Source: a candidate division WOR-3 bacterium
GTDB lineage: Bacteria > Hydrothermota > Tepidihabitantia > Tepidihabitantales > DTDR01
Direction: 5' to 3'
DNA: 23,608 nt
Assembly: GCA_039801885.1 (NCBI GenBank)
Contig: JBDRVN010000022.1
Coordinates: forward strand, 1-23,608
Position numbers and translations under genes: made by a program. The notes beneath the pieces are model-generated. The model did no database searches. It worked only from the letters and a program-made list of their open reading frames with translations, and had not been told where the DNA came from. Numbering within the stretch: the first letter of the stretch is position 1; each line of letters begins with the position of its first letter. This document shows positions 1 through 15,013 of this stretch, piece after piece.

Positions 1-999
1 ACAAGTTGGATAATACCAATAATAGGTAGTGGAAGTTGGATAGATAGTAACATCACCCCAACCACTGCTTGTTTTCATCCGGTGGGCAATATGATAGTAA
101 TAATCATTAGAAGTATATGCCATCCAAACAACATGGACATTGCCATTACCATCAACTGCTACCCTTGGATAATAGTTATAATAACTATATGTAAAAACAG
201 AAACTGTTTCTACTGCACCCCAAACACCATTGGCATCTCTCATCCGATAAAAGATATTATAATAGGAAGAGCCAATTGTTATATAACCATACCAGACAAC
301 ATGGACACGGTTTTGACCGTCAACGGCAATATGGGGATAATATTGGGAAGTCCATCCCCAAGGAGCAACAGTATCAATATCAACAACGGTTGGTGTGGGA
401 TAACTTGGATAAATCTTCGCATAACCAACTGTGTAATATCCACCCCAATAGACATAAAAGGCAGTATGAGCAGTATCACCTTTGCCACCAGCAATTTTTG
501 GATAATAAACAGTTGTAGTTTTTGTTGGTAATGAGCAGGGGTTGGTATAGTTACCATTCGCAAGTTTTGCTCGATAATAAAGCCAATAACCAGCAGGTGT
601 AGATAGATAACCACGCCAAATGAAATGGACATTGTTATTAGAATCACCAGCAACACTTGGATAATAACTATAAGTAAAAGAAGGCGTCCATTTGTTTACT
701 GTCTCTTCTGGCGACCAACTACCACTTTGGTCCCACCATCTCATAATCACTGGATAACCTGTTGTTGTCCGATACCAAACACCATAAACCCGGTTATTTG
801 GCGTATGGGTTGCCCAGTTAGAAAGATAAGAATAACTATAGTTATAAACTGACATACCTGGTGTTAAGCAGACATCAGGTTCCCAAGGAAGTTTCTGCGG
901 AGGAGGCTCAGGTGGTGCAACTGGCAAAGAAGTTCCTTTTGGTGGTAAAGCAAAAATAAAACCTGTAAACAATACTAAGATTAAAAGTTTCTTAAACAT
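1..999 (-). CDS. Secreted Tyr/Trp-rich beta-propeller (BNR/sialidase-like repeat) protein; 3' end lies outside the window
   Basis: Not in the ORF track because there is no stop in the window. Manual translation from ATG 999 is open to base 1: MFKKLLILVLFTGFIFA (signal peptide), a Pro-rich linker, then repeated blades YYPSVAGDSNNNVHFIW, YYPHIAVDGQNRVHVVW and YYPRVAVDGNGNVHVVW. AGGAGG RBS at 1005-1010. Confidence 0.88.
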   Translation of the reverse strand, partial: MFKKLLILVLFTGFIFALPPKGTSLPVAPPEPPPQKLPWEPDVCLTPGMSVYNYSYSYLSNWATHTPNNRVYGVWYRTTTGYPVIMRWWDQSGSWSPEETVNKWTPSFTYSYYPSVAGDSNNNVHFIWRGYLSTPAGYWLYYRAKLANGNYTNPCSLPTKTTTVYYPKIAGGKGDTAHTAFYVYWGGYYTVGYAKIYPSYPTPTVVDIDTVAPWGWTSQYYPHIAVDGQNRVHVVWYGYITIGSSYYNIFYRMRDANGVWGAVETVSVFTYSYYNYYPRVAVDGNGNVHVVWMAYTSNDYYYHIAHRMKTSSGWGDVTIYPTSTTYYWYYPTC

Positions 1000-1024
1000 T
1001 TCAACCTCCTTAAACTTTAATTAA

Positions 1025-1110
1025 AGGGTGAATATTTTTTCTTAGTTAACCAGCCACCCCTACCGGTTAACCTAAAAACTATTATTTGGGCATTATGCCC
1101 AGTCCTCATT
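1025..1110 (-). ncRNA. Candidate structured 5' leader (hairpin plus H-type pseudoknot), copy A
   Basis: Stem 1062-1071/1045-1054 with loop AGGGGUG, complementary to downstream CACCCUU (1030-1024). Shows covariation relative to copy B at 8136-8223. Confidence 0.6.
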
Positions 1111-1117
1111 TGTATAT

Positions 1118-1145
1118 ATTATAACAAATTCTAAAAAAAAGTCAA
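1118..1145 (-). promoter_or_regulatory. Sigma70-type promoter, copy A
   Basis: TTGACT (1145-1140), 16 nt spacer, TATAAT (1123-1118), with an extended -10 TGn. Identical at 8231-8258. Confidence 0.75.
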
Positions 1146-1243
1146 TAGGAAATTTTAATATTTTAATATCCATTTTACCCTTATTTTTCAAGGGTTTTAA
1201 AAACTTTAATAAAATTTTTAATTTCCAAATTAAAGAAGGTTAA

Positions 1244-4891: not shown

Positions 4892-7800
4892 TTAATGGAT
4901 TACTAATTTCTTGGTTGCCCGATATTCATTGGCAACAAATTTCAAAATGTAAATACCAGTAGCAAAATTCTTTTTATCAATCACAAAGGAACCTTTATCA
5001 CTGGTAGCATTGTAGACAATTTCACCGAGGATATTGTAAATCTTTAATGATGCTTTAGTATTAACTGGTAAGGTGTAGGAGACTTTTAGATAATCTCTTG
5101 TTGGTGTTATGGTTAATACAAACTCTTTATTATTAAGAACATTTCCTTGAATAGCCGTTGGCAAAGATTTGCTTGCCATCAATTCGCTACTGAAGCCAAA
5201 GCACCAGAATTCATTGGTTCCACTACCGACAAAGGCAAAGACACCATTGCCCGCTTCGGAATAAGTTAAAGCACCACCACCTTTCACCTTCTTTGCTGGT
5301 GTGCCGGCTGGCTGACCAACATCTAATTCAATCTTCCAAGAATCGTTAGCAGTATTGAAGGAGAAGAATTCTAAGGTATTACCGCCTTTTAAGGCATAAA
5401 TCCGACCTTGTGAAGGAACATAGGCACCAGCACTTCCTTCCTTTGCCTTCTTCTTCTTATTAGTTGAGCCAACCAATGGCATCTCTGGTTTCGTAACTGC
5501 TGTGCCACCAATCGGTATCATATAGAACTCATTTATCTTGCCACCAACCCTTAAAGCATAAATTCTTGCTGTCTCACCAGGAACATAGACAATCCAAGAA
5601 CCGGTCTTCCATTTGTCAGCCGGTAAAGCGGCAGGATTGCAGGCTTCAAAGGTCTCGGTATACCTGTTAAACCTCTTCCATTCATTATTAGAAGAACCAC
5701 AAATGACATAGATAAAGGAATCACCATCAAATGCCTGGGAACTTCCTTTAATTCCTTTTGAAAAGCCAACTTGATACTCTTTCCAGGAATCAACGGCAAT
5801 CTTATAGCGCCAGAACTCTTGGGTATTATTTCCCTTTATCACATAGATATTTTCACCATCCGTGCAAATAGAAGCACCTTTCTTAACATTCTTTTTCTTT
5901 GTTGTGAGACCAGAAAGCGGCACTTCACTCTTCTTTGTCCAGGTATTGGCATTCACATCATAAACCATTAGGTCTCTTGTATTATTACCAACCAAAGCAT
6001 AGATTTTATCACCAAGGGCACACAAAGCACCGCCACTCTTCACTGGTTTTGCTGCACCACTAACATCAGTCATTCTTGACCAACCAGCAGGAATCACTAC
6101 TTTGGTAACAACAAAGGAACCTCTTAATGTATCATTACTGGGATTACGGTCACCGGCTAACATAGTATAAACAAGGGAATTATAGGCTCCGGTATCTTTT
6201 GGCAAGAAATTACCAAATGTCACTTCTCGCTCTTCACCTGGCTCAAGATTGCTTACAGAAACTGTTGCATCAAAATATAAGGAATCACCTTTTCTAATCT
6301 GGAAGGTTGCTTGGGTGGATACTCTAATATTGGCGCTATAATTCTTAATCTTTGCCGTCACTGGTTTGGGAGTTAAGGTATCCCATTGAACCATACCAGC
6401 AGGCCAGACAATCCTTGTTGGACCGACATCAACTTCACCAACAATAAATCTTGAGAGTTTTAGATTATTTGTTGGATTCATATCATTGGTTAAAGCGGTA
6501 TTAACTTGACAAGTCCAAGAACCACCTTCTGCTTCCCAAACACCACTGGCACTCACCTCTCTTTCTTCACCTGGTGCTAAATCGCTCACTTGAACAAATT
6601 CAGTAAAGACTGTGCCAATCCTAAACCAGAGATTGAAACTACCCGTATTCACATTACCAAAATTCTTAACAATTGCTTTTGGCTGGACAAGGTCACCAAC
6701 ATTCAAAATTGTATCTTGTTTCGGCACAAGAATTGTAACAACACCGGCATCTAAAACTCTCACAAAGGTCTTCTGTCTTAAAGTATCGTTTCTCTGAAAT
6801 TCGTCGCCTTCAAAATAGGTCCTTAAAGTTATTAATATTGTATCGCGAATATGGGCATTCCAAGGAGTATAAGTGAGTAATGTCTCTTTACCACTGGGAA
6901 TATCTTGTAAGAAGAGGGAATCACTATAAAGAAGTCCAGCAGTTGGATGTTCAATTGTGAAATAGGTCCAGAATGATTCAGTATAAGAACCACTATTTTT
7001 TACCTTAACAGTTGGGGTAATTGCGGCAGTTGTATCAATATTTAATGAAGGTGAAAGGATTGCTGTCGGTTTGGCATCGTGAACCCTGACAACATCTCCC
7101 CATTTTAATCCCATAGAAACCTGTTGAACAATAACCTGTGAACCATCATAAACGGAAAATTGCATAAAGGCATAGACAGTAGAATCTAAATCAATATTTG
7201 TTGGTTCCCAAATATCAATATCAGCACAATAATAAGGATTAGCCGCAGCACTTCTTATAAAGGTGGCATTGGTATCAAACTGTTTAATTTGACCAGAGTT
7301 CCAACCACCGGTTAAAACCCAGAAGGTATCTGTTCCAGGCGGCACTGCTGATAATGGACGATAGAAACAACTTTGCATTCTTTCCGCATAGATATAACTC
7401 GTATTTTCTTTCCAGCCTTTAATCTCCTTATTATCTAAATCAACCTGCCACCATCTTCTTTGGGAAGCAGAATACGCCTTAGATATATAGAAATATCTTT
7501 TCTGTGGACAATAATCCATACCAGCATACCAATAGTTTGCCTCACATGTCCAAAGATTAAAAGAATCAGCAGCCGTTCCCATCCATCTAAAAGTATCACC
7601 ATCGGCATCCATTTTTGTTAACTGGATTGCATAGCCAGGAGCAGTAGTAGAAGCATCGGTGACACTTGTTACCCATAGATTGCCACTTCGGTCATTATAA
7701 GCAATTCCCCACCAGAGGTCAGCAGTTGAACCGCCAAAATTTGGTCGGTTTTGAATAACAACCTGTCTGATTGTTAGTGAATCAAAATCAACTTTATATA

Positions 7801-8107
7801 TTCCATCAACATAAGAGGAACTGAATTGAAGGAGATAGAATTTATTTATTGCCTTTGCCCAAGTTATTCCACCACCAGCATAGGAAGTAGGTGTTGAGAT
7901 ATAAAATGTCCGCACAACAGTTCCGAAAGGTGGTTGGTCAGTTCCGTGATAGTTAACTTCTGCCTTTATTGAGCAGGTTTTATTAAGATGGGTTCTATCA
8001 GGTGAAAATTTTCCATCTTTCGGTGGCATCATAAAGTCCCAAGGATTAGCAGCAAAAAGATAAACAAAACCAAGAAGTAAAATTAGGATTGATAATTTAC
8101 CTTTCAT
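4892..8107 (-). CDS. Large secreted surface protein: N-terminal propeller-like domain, 3 CARDB/Ig-like domains, Kelch-like propeller and T9SS type-A-like CTD
   Basis: Signal peptide; three D(A/V)(G/K)...I..P...(V/I)KN...ND repeats; Kelch-like blades IYALVGNNT, IYVIKGNNTQEFW and IYALKGGNTLEFF; C-terminus LKIYNILGEIV...TGIYILK...TKKLVIH. AGGAGG RBS. Confidence 0.9.
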   Translation of the reverse strand: MKGKLSILILLLGFVYLFAANPWDFMMPPKDGKFSPDRTHLNKTCSIKAEVNYHGTDQPPFGTVVRTFYISTPTSYAGGGITWAKAINKFYLLQFSSSYVDGIYKVDFDSLTIRQVVIQNRPNFGGSTADLWWGIAYNDRSGNLWVTSVTDASTTAPGYAIQLTKMDADGDTFRWMGTAADSFNLWTCEANYWYAGMDYCPQKRYFYISKAYSASQRRWWQVDLDNKEIKGWKENTSYIYAERMQSCFYRPLSAVPPGTDTFWVLTGGWNSGQIKQFDTNATFIRSAAANPYYCADIDIWEPTNIDLDSTVYAFMQFSVYDGSQVIVQQVSMGLKWGDVVRVHDAKPTAILSPSLNIDTTAAITPTVKVKNSGSYTESFWTYFTIEHPTAGLLYSDSLFLQDIPSGKETLLTYTPWNAHIRDTILITLRTYFEGDEFQRNDTLRQKTFVRVLDAGVVTILVPKQDTILNVGDLVQPKAIVKNFGNVNTGSFNLWFRIGTVFTEFVQVSDLAPGEEREVSASGVWEAEGGSWTCQVNTALTNDMNPTNNLKLSRFIVGEVDVGPTRIVWPAGMVQWDTLTPKPVTAKIKNYSANIRVSTQATFQIRKGDSLYFDATVSVSNLEPGEEREVTFGNFLPKDTGAYNSLVYTMLAGDRNPSNDTLRGSFVVTKVVIPAGWSRMTDVSGAAKPVKSGGALCALGDKIYALVGNNTRDLMVYDVNANTWTKKSEVPLSGLTTKKKNVKKGASICTDGENIYVIKGNNTQEFWRYKIAVDSWKEYQVGFSKGIKGSSQAFDGDSFIYVICGSSNNEWKRFNRYTETFEACNPAALPADKWKTGSWIVYVPGETARIYALRVGGKINEFYMIPIGGTAVTKPEMPLVGSTNKKKKAKEGSAGAYVPSQGRIYALKGGNTLEFFSFNTANDSWKIELDVGQPAGTPAKKVKGGGALTYSEAGNGVFAFVGSGTNEFWCFGFSSELMASKSLPTAIQGNVLNNKEFVLTITPTRDYLKVSYTLPVNTKASLKIYNILGEIVYNATSDKGSFVIDKKNFATGIYILKFVANEYRATKKLVIH

Positions 8108-8135
8108 TTTAAACCTCCTTACCTAATTTTTTATT

Positions 8136-8223
8136 AGGGTGAATATTTTCTTTTTGGTTAATTAGCCACCCCTTACTAATTAACCATAAAACTATTATTT
8201 GGGCATTATGCCCAGTCCTCATT
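8136..8223 (-). ncRNA. Candidate structured 5' leader (hairpin plus H-type pseudoknot), copy B
   Basis: Stem 8175-8186/8155-8166 (UGGUUAAUUAGU/GCUAAUUAACCA) with loop AAGGGGUG, complementary to CACCCU (8141-8136). Confidence 0.6.
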
Positions 8224-8230
8224 TGTATAT

Positions 8231-8258
8231 ATTATAACAAATTCTAAAAAAAAGTCAA
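8231..8258 (-). promoter_or_regulatory. Sigma70-type promoter, copy B
   Basis: TTGACT (8258-8253), 16 nt spacer, TATAAT (8236-8231), extended -10. Confidence 0.75.
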
Positions 8259-8352
8259 TAGAAATTTTTATTTTTTTATTTTAATTTTATCCTTATTTTT
8301 CAATGACTTAAAAATTTCTAAATTTGCTCACCAATTTTTTAAGAAAAGGGTT

Positions 8353-9978
8353 TTAATAAATCACAATTTTTATCAGTTTATCCTTTTTCTTTAAGAAATA
8401 TATTCCCTTCTTCTTTTTAAAAGAAATTAACCTGCCAATTGGATCATAAAGTTTTATTATCTCTTCTTTTAATAAATCTTTCTTTTCTTCTTTTATTCCA
8501 ATTACCATTAATCTTTTTATCCTTTGGTTATTATTAGGATTTAGGTCTCCTAAAAGATAAGTGTTAACCGAGATTGAATATTCGCCAGAAGGAAGGGTAA
8601 ATTCGGAAAAAGAGATAAGTGTCTCTTCTTGGGGAGAAAGGGATGGAATAGTTAATTGTTCAAGAATGGTAGTGTCGAGATAAAGGCGGGTAGTAAAAGA
8701 GCCACTGTTGGTATTTCCGAAATTTTTAATCTTTGCTCTTACTTTAATTGTCTCGCCAACTCCGATCGTCTCAGGAAGAATAATACTCTCAACACCAACA
8801 TCTTTCACTCTAACAAATATCATTCTTTTAATAGTATCGTTATGAGGAAATTGGTCATCCCTTAAATAGGTTCGGGCAACTATTAAAATGGAATCGCGAA
8901 AATTCATTTGTAAAGAAGAGAAGATAAAGGTTGTCTCTCTCCGTGGCGGTAAGTTATTAATCCGGATACTATCAAAATAGGTATTGGCAATATTTAAATA
9001 GCAAGAGAAATTCTCATTAAAATCACCATTATTTCTTACTTTTATCTGGGGAGAAATTATTGCTGACGAATCAATCAGGGTAGGCGGAGAAATAATTGAA
9101 GTTGGTGAGATATCATGAACTTTTAATAGGTCTCGCCAGCAAAGTCCTAAAGAAACCTGATAAAGATAAGTGGGGTTAGAACTTAAAAGGAAGATATAAA
9201 CAGTGGAATCTAAATTTAAATTCTCGGGCTCCCAAATATCGCCACCAACAATTACTGAGGGCATATTAGCACTTCTTCTTAAATTTCCTAAGGTATCATA
9301 TTGATTTAAAACATTAGAATTTCTATTTCCACCTAAAATCCAAAAGGTATCTCTTCCTTGCGGTGTATCATTGGTTGCATAGAAAAAATTTGCCAACCAA
9401 CCTAAATAAGCAAGATTTTTATTGCCAATAACCCTTTTTCTTTCAAAATCTAAAAGATACCAATTATTAGTAGAGTTTTGATTGGGAGTGTAATAAATAT
9501 TTCGGTAATAATCAAAATCACCAAAGATTCCATAATCAATAGAAGAAAGAAACCAGGTATCTGATGGATTTTGATAAAATCGGAAGGTATCAGGTTTTAT
9601 CTCTCGCATCTTTACTGCAATTGAGCGGGGAGGCAGACTTAAATCCACATATTGAATATGCCAAAGACATCGCTCTTCTTGATTATAAGCAATTCCATAA
9701 AAATAATCGGGAAAGGTAGAATCAAAATTGGGGTAATTTAAATAAGAAATTTCATAAGAAAGGGAAGGATTATCAGGAAAGAAACGGTAAATCCGACATT
9801 GATGAATATTTTGGGAATAAGTAAGGATATAAAAAGAATTATTTTTCTTTGACCAGGTAACACCACCACCAAAGGGTGCTAAACTTATTCGCCATTGATT
9901 AACAACTGTGCCAAAAGGTGGAATTTCTTCGGTCTTTAAAAGGGAAAAAATTAAAATAAATAAAAAGATTTTTTTCAT
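8353..9978 (-). CDS. Secreted protein, shorter paralog of 4892-8107 (propeller-like domain, 2 CARDB domains, short CTD)
   Basis: Shares PPFGTVV, GGG(I/V)TW, GIAYN, DTFW, DIWEP.N..LDSTVY, QVS.GL.W.D...VHD and NDT with the neighbour, but lacks the Kelch-like module. Ends YDPIGRLI..KGIYFLK..KIVIY. Confidence 0.88.
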   Translation of the reverse strand: MKKIFLFILIFSLLKTEEIPPFGTVVNQWRISLAPFGGGVTWSKKNNSFYILTYSQNIHQCRIYRFFPDNPSLSYEISYLNYPNFDSTFPDYFYGIAYNQEERCLWHIQYVDLSLPPRSIAVKMREIKPDTFRFYQNPSDTWFLSSIDYGIFGDFDYYRNIYYTPNQNSTNNWYLLDFERKRVIGNKNLAYLGWLANFFYATNDTPQGRDTFWILGGNRNSNVLNQYDTLGNLRRSANMPSVIVGGDIWEPENLNLDSTVYIFLLSSNPTYLYQVSLGLCWRDLLKVHDISPTSIISPPTLIDSSAIISPQIKVRNNGDFNENFSCYLNIANTYFDSIRINNLPPRRETTFIFSSLQMNFRDSILIVARTYLRDDQFPHNDTIKRMIFVRVKDVGVESIILPETIGVGETIKVRAKIKNFGNTNSGSFTTRLYLDTTILEQLTIPSLSPQEETLISFSEFTLPSGEYSISVNTYLLGDLNPNNNQRIKRLMVIGIKEEKKDLLKEEIIKLYDPIGRLISFKKKKGIYFLKKKDKLIKIVIY

Positions 9979-11729: not shown

Positions 11730-11734
11730 ATTTA

Positions 11735-11796
11735 ATTATGGAAAGGAAATTTATTAAGTCAATATTCTTGACTTTATTTTATAAAATAATTATAAT
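11735..11796. promoter_or_regulatory. Back-to-back divergent sigma70 promoters
   Basis: Plus strand: TTGACT (11768-11773), 17 nt, TATAAT (11791-11796). Minus strand: TTGACT (11762-11757), 16 nt, CATAAT (11740-11735). Each -10 box is 5 nt from an ATG. Confidence 0.65.
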
Positions 11797-11801
11797 TTTG
11801 T

Positions 11802-12114
11802 ATGGCATTTGTTTTGGGAATATTATCGGTAGTGATTGCCTTATTATCTATCTTTTTAGCCATTTATCTTTCTAAAAGAACCGATAAATTAATCCACACC
11901 GAAGATATGCGAGCAAAATTAATAATTGAAGAGGGAAATAGAAGATTGGAAGAAATAATGAAAAAGAACGCAAGAGATGATGAATGAGGGAAACGAAAGA
12001 TTGGAAAAAATAATTCAAGAAGGAAATTTAAGATTAGAAAGGATAATTGAGGAGATGGATAAAAGACATACCGAAATATTAAAATATCTCGCTGAATTAG
12101 TCGCCCATAAATAA
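11802..12114 (+). pseudogene. Frameshifted TM plus coiled-coil repeat protein (about 103 aa if restored)
   Basis: ORF 11802-11987 stops early. Removing one A from the A5 run at 11961-11965 continues it as RTQEMMNEGNERLEKIIQEGNLRLERIIEEMDKRHTEILKYLAELVAHK*, repeating the upstream IIEEGNRRLEE unit. Confidence 0.65.
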
Positions 12115-12119
12115 TTTAA

Positions 12120-13136
12120 TTATTTTATTATCACCTTCTTTCTTATCTTTTTCTCTTCTTTAATAAAGTAAATTCCCTTTCTTAAAGATATAGAGTTATT
12201 TATTCTTTTTCCCAAGATATTATAAATCTTTAAACTAACCTCTTTCTCCTTTTCTTTAATACCAACCGCTCTGGTTATTGTGATATTTAACCTAATTGTA
12301 TCGTTTATCTTTCTTGTATCACTTCTCAAAGCAGTATAAATCTTTGCTGAATAGTTTCCAGTTGGCAGGTTTACTCGCCAGAATATTCTTGTTCTTATTC
12401 GGCTATTTGGTGGCAGAGTCAAATAAGTAGTTTCAATGGGTATCTCATTTAGTTTAAAAACTATCGGAACTTCCCTTTCAAAAAATCCGCCACATTCTTT
12501 TGTCCAGATATCAATCGGATAGATAGAATCAAGATAGCAGGTATCAGGTAAACCAGCAATTGAATCTAAAGAAACATCGTGATATTCAACAATCGCGCAC
12601 ATCTGCATATCAGTTGCTGGTGAGAATAAAGAATAACCAACCCCTTGTTGATGGCGCCAATGAATACCCGAAGGAGCATTTAAACTTGAATCCCTTAACC
12701 AATTAAGACCATAAGTGGTATCATAACCACTCAAGATAAAAAGATAGAAACTACCATCCCAAATAGTGCAATTTGGCGGCACCGGATGATAGACAAAAGA
12801 TAAGGTATAACTTGTTGCCAAGGTATCAAAGAAAAATAAAGTAGTCTGCGGCGCACCACCACTACCATCATCATCCACAATCCTAATATGCATCGCCGGA
12901 TGATAGAGCCGAAAGACCCGATGATAGATACCATTAATAATTGCCGGATAATAATTGGGAGTTAATTTGACACCAAAACCAAAATATTTACCACTGCCAG
13001 TATAACCACCACCATAAGGTTCAATATTACACCATTTTAAAGTATCTAAACCCGGATAACTATTGGGATAAAGAATATCATAATAAGCAAAAGAAAAAGA
13101 AATAAATATAATAGAAAATAAAGTTATCTTTTTCAT
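12120..13136 (-). CDS. Secreted protein with a CARDB/Ig-like domain and short T9SS-like tail
   Basis: Signal peptide MKKITLFSIIFISFSFA; HDVSLDSI...NDTIRLNITI; ends GIKE..LKIYNILGKRI..RKGIYFIK..KKVIIK. AGGAGG at 13141-13146. Confidence 0.85.
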   Translation of the reverse strand: MKKITLFSIIFISFSFAYYDILYPNSYPGLDTLKWCNIEPYGGGYTGSGKYFGFGVKLTPNYYPAIINGIYHRVFRLYHPAMHIRIVDDDGSGGAPQTTLFFFDTLATSYTLSFVYHPVPPNCTIWDGSFYLFILSGYDTTYGLNWLRDSSLNAPSGIHWRHQQGVGYSLFSPATDMQMCAIVEYHDVSLDSIAGLPDTCYLDSIYPIDIWTKECGGFFEREVPIVFKLNEIPIETTYLTLPPNSRIRTRIFWRVNLPTGNYSAKIYTALRSDTRKINDTIRLNITITRAVGIKEKEKEVSLKIYNILGKRINNSISLRKGIYFIKEEKKIRKKVIIK

Positions 13137-13165
13137 AAAACCTCCTTGATTATTTTCATTTATCT

Positions 13166-13194
13166 ATTTTATAAAATATTTAAATAAAAATCAA
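13166..13194 (-). promoter_or_regulatory. Sigma70-type promoter
   Basis: TTGATT (13194-13189), 17 nt spacer, TAAAAT (13171-13166). Confidence 0.5.
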
Positions 13195-13322
13195 TAAGTT
13201 TAAAGGTAAAAATCTTTCTTAATTAATGTTTGAATATTTGTAAAAAATACCTAAAAAGATTGATCCTAAGGCAGTCTCCAAGGTAGTATAGTAGATAGCC
13301 CCCTATCCGCATTGCTAAAATT

Positions 13323-13450
13323 ATTTAAGTAATTTAATATCAATAACTTATAAGAAATTTTTGTGAAATAAAAAGTTTCCATACAGGAAACTGGAAAATT
13401 AATTTAAGTAATTGAAAATCAAAGGCTTATCAATTTGGCGCTTTTATTGT
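13323..13450 (+). promoter_or_regulatory. Two IHF-consensus repeats flanking a palindrome, followed by a degenerate sigma54 -24/-12 box
   Basis: WATCAANNNNTTR matches at 13338-13350 and 13417-13429; AGTTTCC-N5-GGAAACT at 13374-13392; TGGCGC-N5-TTGT at 13436-13450. Confidence 0.4.
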
Positions 13451-13468
13451 TTTAATATTGACATATTT

Positions 13469-13975
13469 TTAAAAGCCTTTTTTCCAGCCTTTCATTTTAC
13501 GAAGCATTTTCTTTATCTTGCCTTCAAAACCAATATGAAAGAGTAGATATTTTGCCTGTTGTTCGGGTGTTAAAATCGCAAATATTTCGTCTTGGATTTT
13601 TTCGCATTCACTTTGGTGTTTTTTATCGTTATTTCTTATTAGGTCAACTTGTTTTTTTATCTCATCAGGTTTTACTTTCTTTGCAAGAAGTTCGGAGAGT
13701 TTTTCAATCTCTTTATCCCTTTCTTCTTTTCTTTTTTCTTTCAATTCTCTTATTCTCTTTAACTTGGGAAATATTTTGCTTATCTGTTCTTCGCTAAGAT
13801 TTAACTCTTCGGTTAGCCGCCAAATCCTTAAATTTTCTAATGTTTCAAGTGGTTTGGGGTCTTCGGGCGGTGGTGGATTATGCTTTTCGCAAGGACAGGG
13901 TTGAGAATAAATAGCGAGAGCAAAAACTAATAAAGGAAGAATTAAAAAAATTTTCTTTATATTTTTTCCTTTCAT
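13469..13975 (-). CDS. Spy/CpxP-family periplasmic helical protein
   Basis: Signal peptide; LTxxQ-type motifs LNLSEEQ and ILTPEQQAKY; follows an ECF sigma/anti-sigma pair. Confidence 0.82.
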   Translation of the reverse strand: MKGKNIKKIFLILPLLVFALAIYSQPCPCEKHNPPPPEDPKPLETLENLRIWRLTEELNLSEEQISKIFPKLKRIRELKEKRKEERDKEIEKLSELLAKKVKPDEIKKQVDLIRNNDKKHQSECEKIQDEIFAILTPEQQAKYLLFHIGFEGKIKKMLRKMKGWKKGF

Positions 13976-13976
13976 T

Positions 13977-14513
13977 TTAACCTCCCTTTTTATTTAGATT
14001 TTTTATTAAATATTCCAGTTCTTCATTTTTTAAATTAAATATTAAATCGTAATATTCTTTCTCTTCTACTAATCTTTCTTCTAATAAAATCAAACCTTCT
14101 TCTTTTATCTCTTTGCTTAACTCTTTTAAAATTTTTTCTTCTTCCTGAGAAGAAAGATTATAAATCATTGTTTCATAATTTTCTTCTAATACATATTCTT
14201 CTATCTCGGTTTTTCTTTCCTTTAAAAAAAGAAGGGAAAGGAAAAATATAAAAATAAGAAAACTTGCTAAAGTTGATGCCAAAACAAAATTTTTCTTCTT
14301 TCTCTTTTTTATCCTTTCTTGTAACTTTTCATAGAAAAAGGAAAAGGAAGGAGTATATTCTTTTTTATTAATTTCTTCTTTTATCAACTGAAATTCCTTT
14401 TGATATTTCTGACATAAGGAACAGTTAATTAAATGTTCTTTAATTATTCTTTTCTCTTCTTCTGGTAATAAGTCTGATAGGTAATTAAAAATTTTCTCAC
14501 GGTCGCATTTCAT
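13977..14513 (-). CDS. Anti-sigma factor with zf-HC2 domain and one TM helix
   Basis: MKC...YLSDLL.EEE...IKEHLINCSLC (HxxxCxxC), then a TM segment. ATGA overlap with the sigma gene. Confidence 0.88.
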   Translation of the reverse strand: MKCDREKIFNYLSDLLPEEEKRIIKEHLINCSLCQKYQKEFQLIKEEINKKEYTPSFSFFYEKLQERIKKRKKKNFVLASTLASFLIFIFFLSLLFLKERKTEIEEYVLEENYETMIYNLSSQEEEKILKELSKEIKEEGLILLEERLVEEKEYYDLIFNLKNEELEYLIKNLNKKGG

Positions 14514-15013
14514 ATTTTTCTTTCTAAAAATCTTGCTAATTTTTTATGGGCATTAAAAAGGGATGATTTTATTGTCCCTTCTTTTAGTTTCAGAACTTCA
14601 CAAATCTCTTTGATTTTTAAACCATCGGAATGGTAAAGCAAGAAAACAGTTTTTTCTAAGGGTGCCAGTTTATCTAAATATTTTTCAATCAGTTCTTTTA
14701 ATCTTTTATTCTCATATTCTTTTTCAATATCAATTGGCGAAGGAATCTTTTCCCATTCTACTTCTTCTTCGCTCTCTTTGCTTTTCTCTTTTCTTAAAAG
14801 GTATAGACAATGATTAACAGCAATCCGATATAGCCAAGTAAAAATTTCTGAACGACCTTGAAACTTGTGAAGATTTTTATAAACCTTGATAAAGATTTCT
14901 TGGGTGGCATCAAAGGCTTTCTCGTTGTCTTTTAAGATTTTTTTTGATAGATTATAAACTCTATCGTAATACATCTTTACTATCTCATTAAACTCTTCTT
15001 CTCTTTTCTCCAT
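14510..15013 (-). CDS. ECF-family RNA polymerase sigma factor
   Basis: Region 2: AFDATQEIFIKVY..L.KFQGRSEIFTWLYRIAVNHC. Region 4: VFLLYHSDGL..KEICEVL....GTIKSSLFNA. Confidence 0.93.
   Translation of the reverse strand: MEKREEEFNEIVKMYYDRVYNLSKKILKDNEKAFDATQEIFIKVYKNLHKFQGRSEIFTWLYRIAVNHCLYLLRKEKSKESEEEVEWEKIPSPIDIEKEYENKRLKELIEKYLDKLAPLEKTVFLLYHSDGLKIKEICEVLKLKEGTIKSSLFNAHKKLARFLERKI

Follow-up and report, generated by a model that had tools for sequence, protein, structure and literature searches.

The stretch of DNA analysed here (23,608 nt), hereafter the window, lies on contig C22 of a 1.55-Mb genome (31% GC, 70 contigs, 91% complete), and its minus strand carries two copies, termed A and B, of a structured leader element that lies between a promoter and the Shine-Dalgarno (SD) sequence of a gene for a secreted protein. 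An initial annotation had described a hairpin with a conserved loop and a CACCC motif further downstream, set before the SD sequences of secreted-protein genes; all of these were recovered in both copies where it had placed them, and a conserved promoter was found upstream. Overlooked in that description were the duplication of promoter and leader together, a second hairpin further upstream, the resemblance of the loop to an SD sequence and of the CACCC box to an anti-SD sequence, and the domain architecture shared by the downstream genes. The parts of the two copies, all of them on the minus strand, are as follows.

Copy A, 1179..1191, minus strand: upstream box TTGAAAAATAAGG, about 46 nt upstream of the -35.
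Copy A, 1118..1145, minus strand: sigma70-type promoter (TTGACT, 16-nt spacer, TG-extended TATAAT), with a predicted transcription start site (TSS) near 1111.
Copy A, 1087..1101, minus strand: hairpin 1 (UGGGCA / UGCCCA, 6 bp), preceded by a conserved GAGGA; present in the minimum free energy (MFE) and centroid folds.
Copy A, 1044..1072, minus strand: hairpin 2, 11 bp, from the ViennaRNA fold and covariation; 5' strand GGUUAACCGGU at 1072..1062, 3' strand GCUGGUUAACU at 1054..1044.
Copy A, 1061..1055, minus strand: loop of hairpin 2, AGGGGUG.
Copy A, 1031..1043, minus strand: A-rich linker, 13 nt.
Copy A, 1026..1030, minus strand: CACCC box, able to pair with the loop at -11.0 kcal/mol (7 bp when flanks are counted) and with the true SD at -6.9 kcal/mol.
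Copy A, 1011..1005, minus strand: SD AAGGAGG (AGGAGG at 1010..1005), followed by the ATG at 999..997 of a gene truncated at the contig end.
Copy B, 8291..8303, minus strand: upstream box TTGAAAAATAAGG, spaced from the -35 as in copy A.
Copy B, 8231..8258, minus strand: sigma70-type promoter (TTGACT, 16-nt spacer, TG-extended TATAAT), with a predicted TSS near 8224.
Copy B, 8200..8214, minus strand: hairpin 1, from sequence and fold.
Copy B, 8155..8186, minus strand: hairpin 2, 12 bp, from the ViennaRNA fold and covariation; 5' strand UGGUUAAUUAGU at 8186..8175, 3' strand GCUAAUUAACCA at 8166..8155.
Copy B, 8174..8167, minus strand: loop of hairpin 2, AAGGGGUG.
Copy B, 8154..8142, minus strand: A-rich linker, 13 nt, followed by the CACCC box at 8141..8137.
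Copy B, 8119..8114, minus strand: SD AGGAGG, followed by the ATG at 8107..8105.

Copies A and B lie within a near-identical duplicated block of about 170 nt that comprises promoter and leader and holds, in order, the upstream box, the promoter, GAGGA with hairpin 1, hairpin 2, the linker, the CACCC box and the SD. Alignment of positions 980-1260 with 8085-8370 gave a mean column identity of 86% over 289 columns, and the strings AGGGGTGGCT and AAAATATTCACCCT each occur at exactly two sites in the window, namely copies A and B. Because both copies belong to one duplicated cassette, the conservation of loop and box between these two is weak evidence, and the informative part of the comparison is found inside the stem, where all differences preserve pairing; as had been claimed, two C-G pairs of copy A are U-A in copy B and one G-U is A-U in the alignment. 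The complementarity of 6-7 bp between loop and CACCC likewise held up in both copies, at duplex energies of -11.0 kcal/mol (A) and -10.9 kcal/mol (B), and the copy B box pairs with its SD at -4.4 kcal/mol. Taken alone, the short pieces of 51-54 nt are unremarkable in fold energy (ViennaRNA; z -1.59 with 12/200 shuffles as good for copy A, z -2.27 with 5/200 for copy B). The full predicted leaders, with 5' untranslated regions (UTRs) of 112 nt (A) and 117 nt (B), fold better than their shuffles (A, z -3.38, 0/200; B, z -3.05, 2/200). A search of the whole window against Rfam 15 at gathering scores returned no match, and the best hit at E<=10 in the region 960-1180 was JA01, which at E 0.09 and 22.5 bits against a gathering score of 111 is noise; with no family matched, the novelty proposed for the element is kept. 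An intrinsic terminator or attenuator was rejected, as no U-run follows the hairpin on either strand, and a G-quadruplex was rejected by eye, the G-tracts being too widely spaced.

Fourteen copies of the element were gathered, of which four come from the genome itself (A and B on C22, C19:25155-25236(-) and C41:9542-9606(-)), eight from four sister species (two each in G002, G003, G004 and G005) and two from metagenomes. BLAST of the cassette against 41 relatives found copies in sister species, and the covariance-model search that had been suggested for the element did yield further homologs, all of them within the genus. A first model, built from five copies (R1) and run on 66 genomes of the order, gave credible matches confined to the genus, with no credible copy in any of the 60 genomes of the order's other families and one weak match (G007:C5) that was rejected. 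A second model, built from nine copies (R2), returned 12 credible copies in five of the six family genomes and no credible match in the sixth, which is 68% complete; run on a 151-genome sample of the phylum it gave nothing credible outside the genus and three weak matches. The matches in G007:C5, G134, G189 and G143 were dropped as generic hairpins followed by an SD with the G-rich loop missing, and the ten best of the weak R2 matches in the genus (E>0.001) were inspected and dropped on the same grounds. A metagenome scan queried with the N-terminal 300 aa of the protein encoded downstream of the C41 copy (the C41 type) returned six loci, of which two held new copies, L058 and L060, in the short form described below, and one (L059) duplicated the G002 copy on C3. 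The other three are distant C41-type orthologs (L061-L063, 52-55% identity) whose leaders are without the hairpin; in these leaders a G-rich run resembling an SD lies well upstream of the true one, as with AAGGGAGGAG in L061, which is about 30 nt away. Within the genome itself, GGGTG falls in a loop flanked by at least 7 pairs in 64 of its 935 occurrences, and by inspection only four of the 64 are leaders in which a long stem is followed by an SD, others being coding sequence or terminators. With credible copies found only there, the element is restricted to one genus of uncultured bacteria.

Across the 14 copies the stem of hairpin 2 measures 9-14 bp and falls into several sequence classes, some of them without obvious similarity to one another; GGUUAACCGGU, UUUAGUCAGUUA, AAUUUAGUUGGCA and UUAGUUAGUCAAUC are examples. 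In the covariance-model alignment, which is fitted to the model structure and from which all pair counts were taken, 98.0% of 152 cells hold standard pairs, and 8 of the 11 pairs have changed on both sides, in 33 such cells. The covariation score is 0.668, against 0.292 +/- 0.035 for shuffled data, and none of 500 shuffles reaches the observed pairing or the observed covariation; sliding the 3' partner by 1-3 columns leaves only 10-43% of cells paired. A MAFFT alignment of the hairpins misplaced stems of unequal length and was not used. Since A and B are products of one duplication, the real support for the hairpin comes from the 12 copies beyond these two. Without selection on RNA structure it is difficult to account for a stem that is wholly rewritten yet still pairs, and the hairpin is thus very probably a real, cis-acting structured leader element, as the initial annotation had supposed from two copies; strong covariation over 14 copies now backs that proposal, and both copies in the window are structure-conserved RNA hairpins in a predicted untranslated leader. 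The further homologs could also have broken the pairing or lost the complementarity of loop and CACCC: stem pairing holds throughout, but the complementarity is missing in 6 of the 14.

The loop of hairpin 2, 7-12 nt in length, is the part that stays. Its consensus is a purine-rich heptamer, GGGG(G)UG(G), and 12 of the 14 copies carry GGGGUG or GGGGGUG, the others being AGGGUG (G002, C11) and AAGGGGC (G004, C13). The 16S rRNA of the genome ends at its 3' side in GGAUCACCUCCUUU, with which the loops of the four own-genome copies form duplexes of -10.0 to -15.8 kcal/mol; for the true SD sequences of the same four mRNAs the range is -12.3 to -16.2 kcal/mol, so that the complementarity of the loop to the 16S tail nearly equals that of the true SD. 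The loop lies some 25-65 nt upstream of the true ATG, and in short-form copies only 6-12 nt separate the hairpin from the SD. The loop is likely to be the functional recognition site. That its partner is the ribosome, or the 16S tail itself, is a tentative suggestion and a rather doubtful one. An extended SD, GGAGGUG, is carried by the leader genes on C19 and C41 and is rare in the genome, where only 9 of 1109 gene starts have it upstream (a rough figure, from crude gene calls). In the C41-type ortholog L060 the genuine SD upstream of the ATG (locus position 1501) reads GGGGGGUG in place of GGAGGUG, and thus has the G-run motif also seen in the loops of the leader hairpins.

The CACCC box is present in 8 of the 14 copies, always with 23-29 nt between it and the preceding loop and 14-18 nt between it and the GGAGG downstream. 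Copies can accordingly be sorted into a long form, with hairpin 1, hairpin 2 and box, and a short form without the box; those without it are the copies in G004 (C13), G005 (C21), G002 (C3), the own genome (C41), L058 and L060. Both forms occur in the C41-type orthologous group, where the copy in G004 is long and the five other copies are short, which indicates that box and hairpin 1 come and go as hairpin 2 and its loop stay. Loop and box can pair in all eight box-bearing copies, over 5-7 bp at -9.3 to -13.2 kcal/mol, whereas in the six box-less copies the best downstream partner of the loop reaches only +1.0 to -5.1 kcal/mol; five of these six nevertheless keep a loop containing GGGGUG. For comparison, 85 of 5000 random genomic stretches of 32 nt pair with the copy A loop at -11 kcal/mol or better. 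As the box resembles the 16S anti-SD, it is complementary both to the loop and to the true SD, and its pairing with the region of the true SD in the eight copies ranges from -4.4 to -9.1 kcal/mol. In the nested MFE folds, inspected by their brackets, the box is paired with the SD in six of the eight, copy A included.

The initial annotation had read loop and box as an H-type pseudoknot. Such a fold is consistent with the covariation-backed hairpin stem, which would serve as stem 1 (9-14 bp), and with the complementarity of loop and box in all eight box-bearing copies. The first loop measures 1-4 nt, stem 2 directly adjoins the 3' side of stem 1, and an A-rich third loop spans 9-17 nt; by rule of thumb, loop lengths of this kind are plausible for an H-type fold. 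However, stem 2 can form in only 8 of the 14 copies, the other six having no partner for the loop, and stem 2 shows no covariation: GGGUG and CACCC are invariant in the eight box-bearing copies, and what changes there are affect single sides of flanking positions, the U before the box being C in C19 and the U after it becoming A or C. The pseudoknot is therefore an optional and not a defining feature of the element; in long-form copies it may form, though we lean slightly against it.

A promoter accompanies the leader throughout. TTGACT and a TATAAT-like -10 are present in all 14 copies, always with the hairpin downstream, and the promoters of A and B, at 11/12 hexamer matches with the TG present, are among the best of the window. 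Predicted UTRs of the 12 genomic copies span 53-120 nt, with hairpin 2 at about +40 to +70 from the predicted TSS; hairpin 1 is found in 7 of the 14 copies, with stems that partly differ. All four own-genome leader loci have an upstream box, (A/C)TTGAAAAATAAG, at a distance of 34-46 nt from the -35 TTGACTTTTTT, and the same combination of box and -35 recurs at about three more promoters of the genome that have no leader hairpin, on C2 (+63386), C43 (-11096) and C34 (-2552). The bare 10-mer of this box has 83 occurrences in the AT-rich genome, and it is only in combination with the -35 that it is notable; candidate roles for it are those of UP-like element, activator site and second promoter. 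A search of sequencing runs listed two metatranscriptome contig sets, with small word shares (0.14 and 0.10), and some raw-read runs.

Downstream of all four own-genome copies lies a gene for a giant cargo protein of the type IX secretion system (T9SS), of 1071-1457 aa, that of copy A being assigned through its ortholog. The genes are the following.

Copy B gene, 4892..8120 including the SD, minus strand: 1071 aa, with CARDB, Kelch and Por_Secre_tail; T9SS cargo.
C19 gene: 1457 aa, with DUF7948, SBBP repeats and Por_Secre_tail.
C41 gene: 1265 aa, with CARDB, Kelch and a weak Por_Secre_tail (23.1 bits for the whole protein, 29.5 bits in the genome search).
Copy A gene: at least 333 aa, truncated by the contig end, with no Pfam domain in the visible part.
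G003 ortholog of the copy A gene: 1424 aa, with CARDB, Kelch and Por_Secre_tail.

The two genes of the window had been called non-homologous. This is borne out for the visible N-terminal parts of the proteins, whose similarity is limited to the signal-peptide region (E 0.022), but the architecture of CARDB, Kelch and T9SS tail is common to both. Taking all copies together, leaders precede six different gene groups. Por_Secre_tail has 56 matches in the genome, 48 exceeding the cut-off, and T9SS cargo thus makes up an unusually large coding share for a genome of 1.55 Mb. With four leaders among some 50 T9SS cargo genes, the leader marks a small subset of the cargo, presumably the most highly expressed members.

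Taken together, these data allow the construction of a model, to which we assign a probability of about one half, in which the element is a genus-specific 5'-UTR module that sits on a strong promoter, serves a few giant T9SS-secreted surface proteins of CARDB/Kelch/beta-propeller type and acts by SD mimicry on translation or mRNA stability. We infer this from the covarying hairpin in the predicted 5' UTR, the SD-like loop, the optional box and the association with a strong promoter, strong SDs and giant T9SS cargo genes. The model proposes that the exposed loop attracts a 30S subunit, or retains one, 5' of the true ribosome-binding site, where the docked subunit could provide a standby site or protect the mRNA in the fashion of the stabilising Shine-Dalgarno (STAB-SD) sequence discussed below. 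In the long form, the box would switch between covering the loop, with translation on, and covering the true SD, with translation off, and the translation and half-life of mRNAs for abundant proteins would be set by whichever pairing wins. A more elaborate version, which we consider decidedly unlikely, is a three-state device made of a decoy SD (GGGGUG), a box that mimics the anti-SD (UCACCC) and the true SD, in which free 30S subunits or a loop-binding factor would compete with the box for the decoy and so decide whether the true SD is closed; were it true, the cell would tie the output of its giant T9SS surface proteins to the availability of ribosomes. In that version the short form, which has no box, would serve solely as a standby or STAB-SD site presented on a hairpin.

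Several points weigh against the SD-mimicry model. Six of the 14 copies have no box, so the toggle between loop and true SD cannot be a general mechanism, and as the five core pairs of loop and box never vary, their record is one of conservation with no covariation in stem 2. Because the loop is itself SD-like, partners of the loop and partners of the SD are indistinguishable by sequence. One G004 copy (C13) has retained the stem with the divergent loop AAGGGGC and no box. The shuffle test overstates the significance of the stem, the alignment having been fitted to the structure and the copies being related, and both the TSS and the presence of the hairpin in the mRNA rest on promoter prediction. 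In Bacillus, the nuclease against which a STAB-SD protects is RNase J, a 5'-3' exonuclease that is blocked by the bound 30S subunit, and RNase J was not found in the 91%-complete genome (TIGR00649, 0 matches).

The closest parallel is the STAB-SD of the cryIIIA 5' UTR in Bacillus thuringiensis (Agaisse and Lereclus, 1996, via the review PMC7509114), where, according to that review, an SD-like sequence complementary to 16S rRNA lies far upstream in the 5' UTR of a very highly expressed gene and does not initiate translation. The element described here likewise places an SD-like motif upstream, at -10 to -15.8 kcal/mol with its own 16S tail. It differs in that a covarying hairpin presents the motif in its loop, in that the motif is GGGG(G)UG instead of GGAGG, in that long forms add an anti-SD-like box in cis, and in that no RNase J was found; stabilisation is putative here. 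A second parallel is the Escherichia coli ompA 5' UTR (Emory/Belasco), which is long, with two hairpins, ahead of a gene for an abundant envelope protein, and in which a strong SD aids mRNA stability independently of translation (PMC7509114). The two leaders are unrelated in sequence and in Rfam, ompA has no equivalent of the conserved loop or of the box, and the function of the present leader is putative. SD-sequestering switches with mutually exclusive pairings (anti-SD / anti-anti-SD logic), such as translational riboswitches, RNA thermometers and dinQ (PMC5066626), resemble the element in that its C-rich box can pair either with the SD or with a G-rich competitor upstream. In the present case, however, the competitor is a hairpin loop, which would make the 'on' state a pseudoknot, and 6 of the 14 copies are without the box. 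A hairpin-displayed decoy SD combined with an anti-SD mimic in cis is absent from Rfam and was not found in a non-exhaustive search of the literature, which brought up examples of STAB-SD, of standby sites and of mutually exclusive structures. The element is thus new and its kind known, that of a structured cis-acting leader which exploits SD/anti-SD pairing.

The main rival to SD mimicry assigns the loop to a specific protein. The element would then be a translational operator, in which an RNA-binding protein reads the GGGGUGG loop and represses or activates translation; once bound to a long-form leader, it would release the CACCC box, which could then close the SD. Conservation of the loop on a stem that covaries freely is classic for loop-specific binders, the retention of the loop in box-less copies calls for a partner other than the box, and a protein bound to the short-form hairpin, 6-12 nt from the SD, would clash with the 30S subunit. 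However, the analysis brought up no candidate for this protein. The 91%-complete genome gave no match for CsrA (PF02599) and the loop has no GGA, so that the hairpin departs from CsrA/RsmA targets on both counts, and no regulator gene is consistently adjacent to the copies, though no systematic search for one was made. A protein operator is accordingly possible and, in our estimate, unlikely.

Less probable again is a passive role, in which the hairpins would merely guard a highly expressed mRNA from 5'-end-dependent decay in the manner of ompA, or would have no specific function, loop and box being conserved through recent copying of the cassette. The recent duplication behind A and B and the confinement to one genus agree with this, and the stabilisation of mRNAs for abundant outer-membrane proteins by structured 5' UTRs is established (ompA; PMC7509114). 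Passive protection would not need a particular loop, however, and the loop heptamer has outlasted complete turnover of stem and flanks across several stem classes and six gene groups, for which recency is no explanation; this reading is therefore improbable.

Small H-type pseudoknot riboswitch classes such as preQ1, SAM-II and guanidine-III pair a hairpin loop with a downstream segment by the ribosome-binding site and have an A-rich third loop, and the geometry of the long form is similar to theirs. A riboswitch of this kind, in which the pseudoknot of loop and CACCC would expose or block the SD upon binding a small molecule, could also draw on the alternative pairing of box and SD. However, stem 1 is here much longer (9-14 bp), the pseudoknot is impossible, and evidently dispensable, in 6 of the 14 copies, and a single orthologous group has the box in G004 and lacks it in five other copies. 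No Rfam family was matched even at E<=10, in a library that includes these classes, searches of 66 genomes of the order and of 151 sampled from the phylum gave credible copies in a single genus, and the genes it precedes encode structural T9SS cargo rather than functions in transport or metabolism. In place of a conserved ligand core, a wide spread and genes of one metabolite, there is a loop heptamer, a single genus and a set of surface-protein genes, and the riboswitch-like sensor allowed for in the initial annotation is thus not favoured and is very unlikely.

A DNA-level operator, with the inverted repeat binding a dimeric transcription factor as a roadblock downstream of the promoter, is just as far-fetched: the repeat is perfect and near the promoter, and GGTTAACC is itself palindromic, but the half-sites are rewritten and the spacer (the loop) conserved, which reverses the pattern of an operator, the compensatory changes include G-U wobbles that are meaningless in duplex DNA, and the site is at about +40 to +70 from the predicted TSS. 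A leader peptide of 30-37 aa, read from the AUG in AAAUGAGGA and controlling the main gene, is scarcely credible. Open frames of 30 codons (copy A, 1021-1109, minus strand) and 37 codons (copy B, 8109-8222, minus strand) begin 2-3 nt after the predicted TSS and run through hairpins 1 and 2, and the frame of copy B stops 2 nt short of the main ATG. However, the peptides differ beyond residue 16 owing to a frame-shifting 1-nt indel in the loop, other copies have UUG, CUG or AAG where the start codon should be, no SD precedes it, and the substitutions compensate pairing instead of being synonymous, so these frames are probably not coding. The terminator reading, dismissed above, is likewise unlikely.

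Elsewhere in the window, positions 13977-15013 (minus strand) encode an ECF-type (extracytoplasmic function) sigma factor (167 aa; Sigma70_r2, r4_2) followed by proteins of 178 aa and 168 aa, the latter with a weak LTXXQ match, and these genes may form a sigma / anti-sigma / periplasmic stress module. An intergenic region of 330 nt (13140-13470, minus strand) precedes a 338-aa gene at 12120-13136 and contains a terminator-like hairpin (13392-13374) and a GC-richer segment; it had no Rfam match in the whole-window search at gathering scores. Between two minus-strand genes, about 390 nt (11730-12120) have no listed open reading frame of at least 80 aa on the minus strand, and strong promoter-like sites in both orientations occur at 11735-11796.

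We know of no work on post-transcriptional control in this uncultured, small-genome, T9SS-bearing lineage. The weight of the element is limited by its narrow distribution (one genus), by the inferred nature of its mechanism and by the optional pseudoknot. Promoter and leader of 53-120 nt nonetheless make up a short module seemingly built for very high expression. If the mechanism holds, the element would be a compact natural case of hairpin-presented SD/anti-SD mimicry, and the leader would flag the heavily expressed surface proteins among the roughly 50 T9SS cargo genes of the organism.

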